In this document: positions 3,601 through 40,190 of the stretch, piece after piece | Layout: every line of letters starts with the position of its first letter | Numbering within the stretch: position 1 is the stretch's first letter | Source of the DNA: a virus | Taxonomy: Duplodnaviria > Caudoviricetes | DNA length: 40,190 nucleotides | Direction: 5' to 3' (one strand) | IMG/VR virus record: IMGVR_UViG_3300049209_000010 | Span: 1-40,190 of that record | Translations under genes and position numbers: made by a program | The notes under the pieces: model-generated | The model's database searches: none | The model's input: the letters and a program-made list of their open reading frames with translations, nothing else | What the model was told of the DNA's origin: nothing

Positions 3601-3966
3601 ATGCCCGATCAAAACTCACTGGTGATGGAGGAAATGCGAGCAATCAAAGCGATGCACGTTGACAGCATGTCGAAGCTTGGCGAGCTGTGCAGCGACGTGA
3701 GGGCCTTGGTGATCGAATTGCGCCATACCCAGAAGGGGTTTGAGGACTTGACCGGTCGGGTCATTGAGGTTGAGAAGCAAACTCACGCCATGCAGATTGA
3801 GAACGCCACGAACAGGCCGATTCTTGAGATTGCGCGCAGCATGAATCGAAATGTCTGGCTAGCGATAGGCGCGGCAGTCCTGGCAGTGGCGGGGACAAAC
3901 TATGACAAGTTGTCTGGCGGCGAAAGTACTGCTAAGCCAGCGCAAGTCCAAGAAAGCAGGCAGTAA
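3601..3966 (+). CDS. Coiled-coil protein with single C-terminal TM helix (holin/antiholin-like)
   Basis: GAGGT RBS before ATG 3601; heptad-like region then VWLAIGAAVLAVAG. Confidence 0.6.
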   Translation: MPDQNSLVMEEMRAIKAMHVDSMSKLGELCSDVRALVIELRHTQKGFEDLTGRVIEVEKQTHAMQIENATNRPILEIARSMNRNVWLAIGAAVLAVAGTNYDKLSGGESTAKPAQVQESRQ

Positions 3967-29636: not shown

Positions 29637-29999
29637 CTATCCCTCCGTTGTTTCGGCCTGGCGCTGACGAATGAAGCGCTTGACCGCTGATACATACTTG
29701 CGCCCACATGGGAGCGGCTCTGCATGGCCTACAAGAAACGCAACGCCTTCCATGCGATCTTTGTAGCTCTCGACTCGCAAGAGCGCATCACGCGCGACCA
29801 GGGCGGCCCTGTTGACCTGAATGAATCTATCGGCAAGCTCAACAGCCAAAGTCCGCAGGCTGTCGGTTATCAGCAGTTGTCGGCCGTCACGCTGATGGCA
29901 GACGGTGTACTTCTGCTGGCTTTCAAACCGGATAATGTCGGCGACTTGCCACACTACTGGCTTGCCTAGGTGCAGGGCTTTGACTGTTGAGCGTTTCAT
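29637..29999 (-). CDS. Stand-alone LytTR DNA-binding domain protein
   Basis: DIIRFESQQKYT, SLRTL, FIQVNRAALV, LPCGRKY. Confidence 0.85.
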   Translation of the reverse strand: MKRSTVKALHLGKPVVWQVADIIRFESQQKYTVCHQRDGRQLLITDSLRTLAVELADRFIQVNRAALVARDALLRVESYKDRMEGVAFLVGHAEPLPCGRKYVSAVKRFIRQRQAETTEG

Positions 30000-30622
30000 G
30001 TCGCCATCCGCTGCCGCATATCGGCCTCAAGCTCTGCCAGTTCAGCCAGGAACTCGGTTACACCCTTTTCCATTTCACGAATGCGCGGCTCGTCGCGTTG
30101 GTAGCGGTGGCAAACGTACTGCAATGACTCTGGCAGGCGGTCGTCGAAGCTCACAAAGTCAACCCACTCCAGTTCCGCGCACGCCATCTGCGCCAGCATT
30201 TGCCACTCATATTGGCTGTCATGCTTGCCTGCGCGCATAACCGCGATGTGCTGCGCCGTGTTAGGGCATTTGATTTCCAGGCCGCCGCGCCCTGTAGGCA
30301 ACAGAATCACGCCGTCTGGCGAGGCTGCGAAGTTGGCGATCTTCGGGTGCTGGATCAATCCGACTTCCTCAACCGCGCAATCCTGCATCAGTTCATAGGC
30401 AAGTCGTGCGACCGGCTCAAGTTCAGTGCCTCGCGCCATGGCGGCATTGGTGTAGCCTTCTTCCCATGTGCCTGTCAGTCGCTCGCACAGCAGTTGCATC
30501 ATGTAGTTGGTACGGGTGGCAGAAGGCGCACCACTGCGCCCGCTGGCCATCACGTCTTTAACCTTGCTGGCTGTCACTTGGCCAAGCCTGGCATTGCGCC
30601 AGCTTTCAGTTAGCTGTTCCAT
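29996..30622 (-). CDS. Lambda-type (YqaJ) exonuclease
   Basis: MEQ.TE.W..ARLG.VTAS, GTELEP.AR, ASPDG, LEIKCP. Confidence 0.93.
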   Translation of the reverse strand: MEQLTESWRNARLGQVTASKVKDVMASGRSGAPSATRTNYMMQLLCERLTGTWEEGYTNAAMARGTELEPVARLAYELMQDCAVEEVGLIQHPKIANFAASPDGVILLPTGRGGLEIKCPNTAQHIAVMRAGKHDSQYEWQMLAQMACAELEWVDFVSFDDRLPESLQYVCHRYQRDEPRIREMEKGVTEFLAELAELEADMRQRMAT

Positions 30623-31526
30623 TATCCACCTCGCCTTCAATCGGTTCCTGTTGTGTGGTTAATGCGGCCTTGCGCTGCTCTACGGCCTTCTTTAGCGCTG
30701 CGAATGCGTGAACATCCATGGCAGCCTGCATTTCTGCCTTGCCGGCCAGCCAGACGCTTTGCAGGGCTTCCAGTGATTCGCTGTTGACTACCTGGGTAAT
30801 CCACTTGTCTGCCAGATCGCCGCCCGGTTGCGTCCCCGCCATGGTCGCCAAGCCTTCGCCGCTGTCGGTGTTCAGGTGATGGATGGCCTTGTCTAGCCGC
30901 TCGGTCTTAGGCCAATACTTGTAGGCGCGTTTAACGACCGTCTTCTTGGCCATCTCGCCATAGTCGGTTTTCCATGGTGAAGTCTTGCCAGACTTAACCG
31001 ACTGCGAGCGATTCATGATCCCGTCAATATCCTCACGGCTCATGCAAGTAGTCAGGTAGTCGCCATCGGCTGTTTTAACGACCACATAGCAGCCGACCAC
31101 TTCGCCGCGATCCTTGGCGAACGGGTTGTAGGTGTGCGTAGGCGGACGGTCGAAGCCATTAAGCGCGAAACTGTCCAGGCCATACACAAGCTCAGCTTGC
31201 GCCCACTTGATTGAGCCTGTGGCCATGGCCAAATCCATCAGGCCCATATAGCTGATATCCAGGCAGATTCGGCCATCGCGAGGCACCAGATACGCCTGGC
31301 GCTTTGCCGGGTTCAAGCTGATGCCAATTGCCGCGATGTTGGTCACGGCATTAACGACAGACTGTCGATTGCCCATCGCAATCTTGGCGGCAAAGTCGTT
31401 GCTATGAAAAGTCTGCAAGGCAAAGCCGGCCTCGCGCTCAAAGTTCAAAGCAGGATCAGTCAGCACAGACGCAAACGAATTGCGCGCGCCGTAAATGTCC
31501 TGTTCGATGATGGCAATATTCGACAT
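30606..31526 (-). CDS. recT: RecT-family ssDNA annealing protein
   Basis: GISLNPAKRQAYLVPR, ISYMGL, PWKTDYGEMAKKTVVKRAYKYWP. Confidence 0.93.
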   Translation of the reverse strand: MSNIAIIEQDIYGARNSFASVLTDPALNFEREAGFALQTFHSNDFAAKIAMGNRQSVVNAVTNIAAIGISLNPAKRQAYLVPRDGRICLDISYMGLMDLAMATGSIKWAQAELVYGLDSFALNGFDRPPTHTYNPFAKDRGEVVGCYVVVKTADGDYLTTCMSREDIDGIMNRSQSVKSGKTSPWKTDYGEMAKKTVVKRAYKYWPKTERLDKAIHHLNTDSGEGLATMAGTQPGGDLADKWITQVVNSESLEALQSVWLAGKAEMQAAMDVHAFAALKKAVEQRKAALTTQQEPIEGEVDNGTAN

Positions 31527-31533
31527 GGTGGCC

Positions 31534-32682
31534 TCAGTATTTTATCGAAACGGCTGGAACGGTGCCGGCAGCAATCATCTTGACGATTGCTTTCGCCTGC
31601 TCTTCGGTGACGCCGGTTTTCTGAATTGCTTCCTTAGCCGCTTTCAGGATTGCGCCCTTGTGCGCGCGGTCGGCCTCGCGTGCTTTGGCTTCTGCCTCCA
31701 GGCGTGCGGCTTCGTCGGCTTGTCGCTGGCGCTCGGCTTGCTCGGCGCGCTCTACGGCTTCGGCTTGGCGGCGCACTGCTTCAATGCGGTCAAGCTCTGC
31801 CTGTTTTTCTGCTGCAATGCGGCGCTGCTCGGCAAGCTCTGCGTTTAACCGCGCCTGTTCGGCTGCTGCCTCCGCATCGCGCTTTTGCTGTTCGGCCTGA
31901 CGCTGCTGCTGGGCGGCCTGTTCAATAAGTTCAGCCTCGCGCCGCTTGGCTGCTGCCTCCGCTTCTGCTGCTTCGCGCGCCACGTTCTCGCGATACGCCT
32001 GCGCCTTGGCTTCGGCTTCGCGCTGCGCTTGCTCTGCCGCCTCGCGGGCAATGCGCTCTTCGCGTTCTTTCTGCTCACGCACAGCCTGCTCAGCCTGGAA
32101 CTTGGCAATGGCTGCCAGCTCTGCTTCGTGCTTCTCGCGGATCGCCAGGGCGTCACGCAATGCGGTAAGCGCCTTGTCCTTTACGCGCGCTGCCTCGGCT
32201 TCGTACTCTTCCCAATGCTCGCCAATGATCGTCCCTTCAAGGGTGGCGATATTCTCTTTCAGCTCGGCCGCATCAAGATCGCGGCACTCAAGACGCAATT
32301 TCATGTAATCAATGTTCGCCTGATGGCGAGCAACGCGCGCGGCCTCTTCGGCCTCCCATGCAGTCAAAGGTGCGCGCACCTCGTCTTTCCAGCTGTCTAG
32401 CAAGTCACGCATGCGCTTGCGCTCTGCATCGATCTTGGCCGGCACAGCTTTAAGCTCTGCGACAAGCTCTTTTCCTACGGTATCCAGCGCGGTTTTAGAC
32501 TGAGCCACCTTGTAAGCGATGGACGCAATCTCTTTTCGGCCCTTGGCGGTTGAGACGTCAGGCACAAAGCTTTCAATCTCTGCGCGAATTTTTGCCAGGT
32601 ACGGGTCAAGCCCTTGCTCCGCGCTGAACACTTGCAAGGCGTTCTCTTTGGCTACGGTTACGACTTCGGTTGCTGCTGTCAT
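31534..32682 (-). CDS. Long coiled-coil (TolA-like annotated) phage protein
   Basis: PDVSTAKGRKEIASIAYKVA.SKT.LD..GK; E/A/R-rich helix; GGAG RBS before ATG 32682. Confidence 0.85.
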   Translation of the reverse strand: MTAATEVVTVAKENALQVFSAEQGLDPYLAKIRAEIESFVPDVSTAKGRKEIASIAYKVAQSKTALDTVGKELVAELKAVPAKIDAERKRMRDLLDSWKDEVRAPLTAWEAEEAARVARHQANIDYMKLRLECRDLDAAELKENIATLEGTIIGEHWEEYEAEAARVKDKALTALRDALAIREKHEAELAAIAKFQAEQAVREQKEREERIAREAAEQAQREAEAKAQAYRENVAREAAEAEAAAKRREAELIEQAAQQQRQAEQQKRDAEAAAEQARLNAELAEQRRIAAEKQAELDRIEAVRRQAEAVERAEQAERQRQADEAARLEAEAKAREADRAHKGAILKAAKEAIQKTGVTEEQAKAIVKMIAAGTVPAVSIKY

Positions 32683-32685
32683 GTG

Positions 32686-32850
32686 AATCTCCAGAAAACA
32701 AAAAGCCCGCAATGGTCGAACACCTTTTTGAGACTTCCCCTGTGGCCCGACCATAGCGGGGAGGCTAAAGGTCACAGGGTAGGAAAGGTGCTCGCCGTTG
32801 CGGGCTGCCCCTCTAGGTCTCTGCTTGCGTCCGGGTCTCAAGCCTTCGGC
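32686..32850 (-). ncRNA. Structured leader / C4-like antisense switch before recombination operon
   Basis: ~103-nt interrupted hairpin 32806-32704 with U tract; internal segments complementary to upstream sites and to RBS. Confidence 0.6.
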
Positions 32851-32856
32851 ACGGTC

Positions 32857-32884
32857 ATTATGGCCGCCTGCGCCATTCCGTCAA
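32857..32884 (-). promoter_or_regulatory. Sigma70 promoter for that leader
   Basis: TTGACG-16-CATAAT on minus strand. Confidence 0.7.
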
Positions 32885-35373: not shown

Positions 35374-35583
35374 ATGAACACGAACGAAACCATTAACTAC
35401 TTTGGCGACCGCGCCACGCTTTCAAAGATGATCGGCATAAGCGTCCAAGCCATTGCCCAGTGGCCCGAAACCGTCCCATTAGGCCGTCGCGAGGCAGTCC
35501 GCAAAGCCATGAAAGAACACGCCAACCAGCTAGAAGCACAGGCCAAGAAGCTGCGCCGCGCGGCAAAGGGTGGCGAAGTATGA
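35374..35583 (+). CDS. cro: Cro-like HTH repressor
   Basis: INYFG....LSKMIGISVQAIAQW..VPLGR; GGAGG RBS; first gene of rightward operon. Confidence 0.85.
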   Translation: MNTNETINYFGDRATLSKMIGISVQAIAQWPETVPLGRREAVRKAMKEHANQLEAQAKKLRRAAKGGEV

Positions 35584-36549: not shown

Positions 36550-36710
36550 TAAAATGGTGGTGCCGGGTTAGCCTGGCACCGAGCTTGGCGGCTCGATTAA
36601 TTTAACGTAGTGGCGATTGTTCTGATCTGTGCTGGGGTTTACTACGTTTACCCAGTCCGCCAACCCTGAGAAGGGACAGATCAGAACAATCGCTTTTTTT
36701 TGGGCGGTGA
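36550..36710 (+). ncRNA. Structured leader / C4-like antisense switch before replication operon
   Basis: Perfect 18-bp stem 36613-36630/36676-36693 plus T8, enclosing two hairpins; loops complementary to upstream sites; -10 TAAAAT at 36550. Confidence 0.65.
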
Positions 36711-39033: not shown

Positions 39034-39194
39034 TGTCGATTGAGCAACGCATTGCGGTATCCAAGCTGCGCGCCGAAGGCTTCACCCAATGCGTGGATCA
39101 ATCACAAAGCCTTGTGATCATGGTTCGCGGAAATGACAGGCGGGTCGTGTGGCTGGATGGGTCGGCTCACAGGGCGACTGGAGCAAAGCGATGA
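39033..39194 (+). CDS. Hypothetical protein (53 aa)
   Basis: GGGAGGG RBS; coupled both sides. Confidence 0.65.
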   Translation: MSIEQRIAVSKLRAEGFTQCVDQSQSLVIMVRGNDRRVVWLDGSAHRATGAKR

Positions 39195-39454
39195 AATTAA
39201 ACGTAGGAACTATTGGCCATATCGACCACGGGAAAACCACGCTAATGCAGGCGCTTGTCGCAGTGCTTGGCGAGGAAATGGCAAGTCGCTGCGTGGTTAC
39301 TGATACCAAGCATCCGATCATGGATAGCTTTGACGATATATGCGGCGCATCGCCATACCCTGGCCGACCTAAAAACCAAAAGCGCAAAGCCGCTTGGAAG
39401 GCAAAGCTAAAAGCAGCGCAGCTTAAAGCGTTTTCTGGCGATGCAAAAAGATAG
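39191..39454 (+). CDS. 87-aa protein with EF-Tu-like G1 (P-loop) N-terminus and basic tail
   Basis: LNVGTIGHIDHGKTTL; GGAG RBS; ATGA overlap. Confidence 0.75.
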   Translation: MKLNVGTIGHIDHGKTTLMQALVAVLGEEMASRCVVTDTKHPIMDSFDDICGASPYPGRPKNQKRKAAWKAKLKAAQLKAFSGDAKR

Positions 39455-39670: not shown

Positions 39671-40190
39671 TCAAGATCACCCTCAACCAAATCGCTGCAC
39701 AAAACCCATGCTCAAGCGGCTGGGCAAAAATCCTGCACGCTCGCGGCAAGATCAACGATTCACAGCTAACCGAATTTTTGGAAGATGGCGGCGTTCCGGA
39801 AAGCTACAGCAAGCTTGCTGATGACGAAGAATTTCCCCTGGCAATTGCCCTGAAAAGCAATGGCTTTGACGACGTTAAATGGTCGCTTCGTTGCCTGCCT
39901 GATGATTTTCGTCTGTGGCGAAAGTATGCGGTTTGGTGTGCGCGCCAAGTTCAGCACCTCATGACAGATCAGAGCAGTATCAATGCGCTGGATGTTGCGT
40001 GGCGTCACAGTGACGGCTTGGCGACAGATGAAGAGTTGGCGAGCGCTAGACGAGACGCCGACGCCGCCGCCGACGCCTACGCCTCCGCCTCCTCCTACGC
40101 CGACGCCTCCGCCGCCTCCGCCGCCTACGCCTACGCCTACGCCTCCGCCTCCGCCTACGCCTACGCCTACGCCTCCGCCTCCGCCTACGC
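39667..40190 (+). CDS. 5' part of wrap-around Ala-rich repeat protein
   Basis: Open from ATG 39667 (GGAG RBS) to window end: MIKITLNQI...PCSSGW...LWRKYAVWCARQVQHLM...ATDEELASARRD then repeat. Confidence 0.88.
   Translation, partial: MIKITLNQIAAQNPCSSGWAKILHARGKINDSQLTEFLEDGGVPESYSKLADDEEFPLAIALKSNGFDDVKWSLRCLPDDFRLWRKYAVWCARQVQHLMTDQSSINALDVAWRHSDGLATDEELASARRDADAAADAYASASSYADASAASAAYAYAYASASAYAYAYASASAY
40054..40190 (+). repeat. Low-complexity coding repeat of GCC/TAC/TCC/GAC codons
   Basis: Includes 30-bp tandem 40123-40152 / 40153-40182. Confidence 0.95.

Follow-up and report, generated by a model that had tools for sequence, protein, structure and literature searches.

A covarying leader RNA as a putative self-regulating transcription attenuator of early genes in lambda-like phages

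The locus and the parts of switch A

The window, that is, the whole stretch of 40,190 nucleotides analysed here, is a 40.2-kb virus record rated complete, with a lambda-like layout in which a small Cro gene at 35374 has replication genes to its right and early genes to its left. An RNA element termed switch A is flanked by a small DUF551-like open reading frame and by a run of genes for a coiled-coil protein, a RecT-like annealing protein and a YqaJ-type exonuclease (Table 1), which probably form one operon because they are tightly spaced. That switch A precedes these genes had been claimed in an initial annotation of the sequence and was borne out by gene calls with PF03837 and PF09588 matches. 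The coiled-coil protein (382 aa) matched no Pfam or NCBIfam family, and its look-alikes in the Atlas are hypothetical phage proteins. The same annotation had described a phage without repressor; the window indeed carries no integrase and no CI-type repressor, but the small Cro is kept. Elsewhere in the window, an 87-aa open reading frame (39191-39454, plus strand) opens with an EF-Tu-like P-loop stretch (weak PHROG match, translation elongation factor), and a low-complexity, short-period repeat at the window end (40060-40190) encodes an Ala/Ser/Tyr-rich stretch.

Table 1. Features of switch A, its gated genes and switch B in the window
Feature	Position	Strand	Remarks
Sigma-70-type promoter TTGACG-16-CATAAT	32857..32884	-	10/12 match; TTGACG 32884-32879, CATAAT 32862-32857
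5' leader hairpin from predicted transcription start, b1 in 8-nt loop	32827..32850	-	compensatory changes in both short stems
b1 site TTGAGAC	32835..32841	-	7/7 with b'; 9 codes in family
a1 site	32807..32819	-	given as 32819-32808 in the initial annotation; G-rich tail also pairs with terminator 5' arm
Predicted antiterminator helix (a1 tail : terminator 5' arm)	32814-32784	-	99% of cells paired, 2 pairs changed on both sides
Rod, 103 nt	32704..32806	-	13/46 pairs changed on both sides, 12 window-type copies
a' (C-rich loop and UGGUC bulge)	32749..32761	-	split match to a1 (GACC and GGGG)
b' bulge GTCTCAA	32728..32734	-	unpaired in rod; covaries with b1
U tract of predicted intrinsic terminator	32695..32704	-	directly 3' of rod
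SD GGAGA and first gated gene, 382-aa coiled-coil protein, PHROG 1376	31534..32692	-	ATG at 32682
RecT-like annealing protein	30606..31526	-	PF03837
YqaJ-type exonuclease	29996..30622	-	PF09588
Switch B, three-way junction, two leader hairpins, b code TTGGCGG/CCGCCAA	36548..36704	+	different codes

All sites of switch A named in the initial annotation were recovered on the minus strand at the positions it had assigned. The promoter boxes are kept in homologues with a spacer of varying length between them, and a promoter match of at least 7/12, located 13-24 nt before b1, is present in 24 of 34 elements, a count that has no chance control. Transcription would start at the 5' end of the leader hairpin. 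The rod is composed of a long basal stem P1 (the terminator stem), the b' bulge, a stem P2 and a small apical hairpin P3 with a C-rich loop and a 3' bulge. Its GC-rich stem is followed directly by a U tract, the sequence feature from which intrinsic termination is predicted, and every one of the 34 tabulated copies has a U run 3' of its rod, a feature that the scanner had demanded for part of them.

Within the window, the rod folds at -53.6 kcal/mol, compared with -32.7 ± 3.5 kcal/mol for shuffled sequences (z -5.9; 0 of 500 shuffles as stable), and the whole 203-nt span reaches a folding z of only -1.94. A leader match of at least 7 nt to unpaired rod bases arose in 466 of 5000 shuffled leaders (9%) and the exact b1 in 65 of 5000; the a1:a' match was equalled by 221 of 2000 shuffles (11%), and a promoter scan over 16 kb returned 5 sites, with 9.2 expected. 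In the window alone, the rod exceeds chance; b1, a1 and the promoter are convincing only through homologues. The apical loop a' had also been said to pair 12/13 with the 3' arm. This 13-nt match is present in the window at 92%, and the helix is 97.7% paired and almost invariant in the 12 window-type copies, but it is not family-wide, being absent by eye from codes other than the window type. It may be a fallback terminator of the subfamily or the trace of an internal duplication.

A further claim, that b' covers the Shine-Dalgarno sequence of the next gene, did not hold. The pairing is 7/8 with a mismatch, and with the downstream 40 nt it was matched by 24 of 100 shuffles; across the family, b' reaches ≤5/100 against downstream sequence in only one of 23 elements. 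These figures bear on C4-like translational control, in which b' (and a') would cover the ribosome-binding site of the next gene. Individual copies agree with such control, L002 having a 9-nt a2 directly before the ATG (0/100 shuffles) and L020 a weaker one (3/100). However, several b codes are not anti-SD-like and, in contrast to C4, downstream a2/b2 sites over the ribosome-binding site are not conserved (b2 in the one element above, a2 in 2 of 23), and we regard this explanation as highly improbable. Under the model developed below, intrinsic termination is a better reading of the output of switch A than occlusion of the ribosome-binding site.

Homologues, pairing codes and covariation

A blastn search with the window element matched the Pseudomonas phages HU1, Orimi01 and AH02, and pattern scans contributed further viral and metagenome copies. 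Upstream of coiled-coil homologues, L002, L033 and L046 were found to have other sequence in the same layout, and Orisa01-03 followed. In total, 35 distinct switch copies (34 tabulated plus AH02, with partial copies left out) were collected, bearing nine b1/b' codes and six a1/a' codes. A model built from 11 Orisa-type copies only (R1) detects five window-type copies with E values of 1.5e-8 to 1.5e-4, all of them relatives of the window copy, which it misses itself; the reverse model, built from the window type, detects Orisa-type copies. Since the two models detect each other, both types belong to one family.

Considering that the 34-copy table required a 7-nt b match, searches blind to b1:b' carry more weight. 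A pattern holding only a1/a' returned at least 121 loci, and among those listed, 16 distinct loci with a downstream T run comprised 15 switches and one non-switch; all 15 of these distinct switches pair 7/7 at b1:b', using four codes. The remaining loci were dropped as chance matches. Model R1, which does not contain the b1:b' pairing, found nine further copies, every one of which pairs 7/7, with four codes absent from its training set. In a comparison among five codes, cognate b1:b' pairs match at 7/7 and non-cognate pairs at 4-6.

In the 11 Orisa-type copies, 28 of 48 pairs changed on both sides with 94% of cells paired (0/500 shuffles), and b1:b' changed on both sides at four of its seven pairs while remaining 100% paired; the window-type rod, whose changed pairs are given in Table 1, is 97.5% paired, all of these being counts from related sequences rather than probabilities. 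Many of the pairs are G-U and therefore point to an RNA of this strand, not to DNA. The b1 site always lies in the 8-nt loop of a small 5' hairpin, and the hairpin stems covary. Five of the six a codes pair a1 with a' over 11-15 bp, whereas the window type has a split match that is invariant and without covariation; for window-type apices, the a1 of L046 is no weaker a partner than the a1 they carry themselves (-20.2 vs -16.4). Covariation of b1/b' and a1/a' had been named as a check, and it was found for b1:b' but not for the window-type a1:a'. The proposal of a C4/CI-like device, with b1-a1 upstream and a'-b' downstream, gains support from codes that covary in homologues.

Where two switches occur within one genome, they bear different codes. 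Eight genomes (L274-L281) have a second type-A copy with its own codes, 7-35 kb from the first, which precedes KilAC, NinX, DUF551 or unknown genes. In L033, two tandem copies (2393-2481 and 3679-3763) flank the coiled-coil gene, sharing the a code and differing in the b code. Gene coordinates in Orimi01 and Orisa01 agree as far as about 34.8 kb, and the promoter is shared; code and recombinase module both differ and, to judge from this comparison, were swapped together.

Switch B of the window has no cross-match of codes with switch A. Type B is also present in L065, Lbo-JY16 (L126:10574-10643) and AH02 (L134:13549-13622), and in the first two it takes the place of type A ahead of the same coiled-coil gene. 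The switch B stem and U tract (36678-36710) face a hairpin with a T-rich tail at 36580-36595, which a terminator scan lists as terminator-like and which is the switch B b1 hairpin, as in IsrK. L126 (PP438408.1) is named as a Leptolyngbya phage, a host label that may be doubtful: its early region is arranged as in these Pseudomonas-type phages, and one of its proteins shares 70% identity with the window coiled-coil protein.

Contigs of relatives were seen in four runs from soil and invertebrate-gut metagenomes. In three of the four, the contig matches the window from 32851 to 32677 and diverges on both sides, and the module would therefore extend from the predicted start site to the ATG. The metagenome pattern scan gave 15 matches, two of them without a rod. 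In GTDB genomes, a window-code pattern gave six matches and no rod, which is weak evidence of absence because the pattern held one code only. No switch match was found in plasmids, a Cro-anchored search returned two loci without a switch in either, and the type-A switch was not found in AF, PfAn1, VvAW1 or 4_D05. Blastn matches in Ralstonia, Acinetobacter and Edwardsiella were rejected as short U-tract/RBS or coding matches (two inspected), and three weak matches of model R2 in proviruses as plain short terminators.

Predicted folding and mode of action

The 5' arm of the terminator has a second partner in the window type, namely the G-rich a1 tail. Two pairs of this putative antiterminator helix changed on both sides, and the 3' arm changed too, in three related copies, so that these compensatory changes may be a single event; the Orisa-type helix has no covariation. 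Folded at increasing lengths, the window transcript forms the antiterminator helix at 66-126 nt; b1:b' is seen at 126 nt, and the rod at 144 nt and beyond. If pairing of b1 and a1 is prevented, the terminator stem already forms at 132 nt rather than 144 nt. Once 6 nt of the 3' arm have been transcribed, the probability of the inner terminator pairs is ≤0.10 in 18 of 23 elements carrying the native leader, and it is ≥0.66 in 22 of 23 once the leader is blocked; the medians over the 23 elements are 0.00 (native), 0.41 (shuffled) and 0.90 (b1 and a1 blocked), and blocking one leader site alone gives about 0.3. The native leader fails to block the stem in four of the 23 elements, all of the window type (0.41-0.78), and in some copies of this type a shuffled leader is equally effective at blocking. 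These foldings, which are equilibrium snapshots and no proof of kinetic read-through, predict that a free leader delays the terminator and that a blocked leader allows it.

At full length, the RNA folds as the rod in all 23 elements tested (window, -63.0 vs -45.2 kcal/mol), and read-through would therefore have to be kinetic. The rod as full-length minimum, together with b1 in a hairpin loop as expected of a kissing partner, would also fit a plain long terminator or stable sRNA, with b1:b' as a tertiary kissing contact and read-through set by a phage or host antitermination protein. Such an element would not account for an a1 near the rod base whose match, 11-15 bp long in five codes, lies at the far apex, a pairing that should be impossible in cis on the intact rod, nor for codes that vary freely, unlike a protein site, and we consider it very improbable.

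We favour, as reasonably probable, a self-regulating transcription attenuator with feedback in trans as the function of this covarying leader RNA. With the terminator stem blocked, as predicted, by the nascent leader, the earliest transcripts would extend into the recombination genes. In the window type, this would involve pairing of the a1 tail with the terminator 5' arm and of b1 with b', a structure that covariation demonstrates and whose timing is predicted; in other codes, a1 would pair with a' directly. A share of the transcripts would terminate and yield an RNA of ~155 nt, perhaps trimmed to the rod, whose b' bulge and a' apex would dock in trans on the b1 loop and a1 of a later nascent leader. 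Judging from the geometry and from P4 CI, docking would free the 5' arm and let the terminator form. In phages without CI control, the gated genes would thereby be expressed in a pulse shaped by negative feedback, and the codes would serve to prevent cross-talk among paralogous switches and with unrelated phages. Action in trans is suggested because a1 adjoins the rod base yet matches the far apex and because paralogues carry different codes, with P4 CI as a precedent; the initial annotation had raised such action as a possibility, directed at superinfecting relatives.

Covariation cannot separate cis from trans pairing, and all covariation and folding results are compatible with cis pairing. 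They would also suit a cis-only kinetic valve, in which the b1:b' and a1 helices set the read-through fraction, or in a variant sense polymerase speed or temperature, and the terminated RNA is inert in trans; no second b1+a1 target was found on the sense strand of the window, as such a valve would have it. We nevertheless hold it to be rather unlikely. The many codes, differing between paralogues, would matter only if the RNAs meet in trans, the window-type a1:a' match is conserved although its formation in cis is not predicted, and P4 CI and C4 act in trans according to passages of PMC4825925 and PMC5320573.

Feedback in trans could also have the opposite polarity, as in Gifsy-1 IsrK (RF01394), a phage leader RNA that acts in trans on its own read-through RNA. 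Here, a'/b' of a nascent transcript would be bound by a freed piece of the leader or by the short RNA, with more read-through and a delayed onset in place of shut-off. IsrK activates its own longer RNA in trans, as stated in part of PMC4825925, and the switch B leader is weakly like IsrK (23.4 bits vs a gathering score of 50). However, IsrK activates translation and has no match on switch A, no terminator follows the type-A leader, P1 would, from the fold, not have to open for an RNA to bind at the a' apex and b' bulge, and leader blocking favours the terminator in folding; this polarity appears quite improbable.

Relation to known RNAs and distribution among phages

Conserved pairing shows the switch family to be a genuine RNA with strong covariation, and it represents a novel form of C4/CI-type RNA. 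Comparison with the Rfam models C4, c4-2 and c4-a1b1 using Infernal, another check that had been named at the outset, placed switch A below all cut-offs. No match in the window reached a gathering score, and only chance matches were obtained for the element (E≤10) and for 18 homologous loci. C4 (RF01695, gathering score 45 bits) had no match on switch A, its best score in the window being 9.9 bits over switch B. The best c4-a1b1 score (RF03163, cut-off 46.7 bits) was 14.8 bits, with two weak matches (12 and 7.1 bits) lying over b1 hairpins that belong to second copies in G010 and G013, and c4-2 (RF02944, cut-off 41 bits) matched none of five carrier genomes at E≤10.

In temperate phages, RNAs of the C4/CI type are known to confer immunity. 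As in C4, the unpaired a' and b' of switch A are complementary to upstream a1 and b1, and switch A shares with C4 and c4-a1b1 a two-part a'/b' code and a b1 displayed in an 8-nt hairpin loop; two switch copies also precede antirepressor-type genes, Rha or KilAC. In contrast to the three stem-loops P1-P3 of C4, switch A has a single rod, interrupted by a bulge and topped by a small apical hairpin, plus one leader hairpin, and unlike C4 it is predicted to end in its own intrinsic terminator. The C4 RNA of P1/P7, as described in part of PMC5320573, is a 77-nt RNA with three stem-loops that is processed by RNase P and blocks a ribosome-binding site. In the portion of PMC2864571 considered here, loops of the published a1b1 alignment resemble those of the switch family, and some C4 b' strands resemble its GTTCCAC code. 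According to a passage of PMC5737381, c4-2 and an already known RNA are probably distant homologues.

By analogy, switch A likely works like P4 CI, in which a promoter, an upstream target and then the antisense RNA likewise lie in the same transcript. In the P4 CI system, there is a minor hairpin and termination is Rho-dependent. Pairing with seqA/seqC leads to premature termination in P4, as reported in part of PMC4825925; in contrast, switch A has no conserved downstream target (seqC), and its antisense stem itself ends in a U tract. The temperate residence and lysogeny of the CI type also set P4 apart from the carriers, which are without integrase or CI. In pT181 and pIP501, the antisense RNA comes from the opposite strand, whereas the antisense proposed here is the terminated product of the same transcript, with two short codes. 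For both of these systems, an excerpt of PMC5415839 describes transcription attenuation induced by antisense RNA.

In a literature search that covered the candidate lists of PMC10690425 in part, no description of the switch family was found, and the switch motifs were absent from seven of the nine supplement files of Fremin et al. (PMC10690425). The family could be an anonymous candidate of that study or one discussed in the c4-2 supplement.

Neither a tyrosine integrase (PF00589) nor an S24 repressor domain (PF00717) was found in any of 29 carrier records (out of 32 considered; two with type B only; 18 virus records at least 90% complete and five cultured phages included), which, as the carriers are related, are not 29 independent events. 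No serine recombinase domain was found in 23 carriers, and HTH_3 matches occur in 16 of the 23, in short frames of 65-150 aa. Among 41 controls, mostly with the same coiled-coil gene, 34 have an integrase and none has a switch; the other seven lack both, so that integrase loss does not imply a switch.

The first genes downstream of the switches encode coiled-coil, ERF, Rad52-like, PD-(D/E)XK nuclease, HNH/NUMOD4, Rha, KilAC, NinX and DUF551 proteins. HNH/NUMOD4 genes lie directly behind four switches by Pfam (L012, L014, L021 and L123), and in six further loci (L033b, L107, L193, L204, L215 and L234) the first gene is probably similar by eye, with no Pfam match. Homing endonucleases may spread switch codes. 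In AH02 (L014:5344-6076), a complete switch of a different code is followed by an HNH gene and then by the 3' half of a window-type switch, which looks like the replacement of one code by a switch-plus-HNH cassette.

In the proposed attenuator, the two-site logic of C4/CI would operate on an intrinsic terminator, gating recombination and other early genes. If its trans action holds, it would explain how early genes are shut off in repressor-less lambda-like phages, and at least 9 x 6 natural codes would be available for orthogonal transcription control in about 150 nt. The cultured carriers HU1, AH02, Orimi01 and Orisa01 include, in the last two, a natural pair with swapped codes. More tentatively, a lambda-like clade that has lost integrase and CI might time its early operons with protein-free RNA clocks, each producing its own repressor through termination and bearing a two-part code. 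The codes might diversify such that a phage silences the recombination genes of superinfecting kin with the same code and escapes others. If true, this would amount to RNA-coded kin recognition among non-integrating phages, together with a natural library of orthogonal attenuators.
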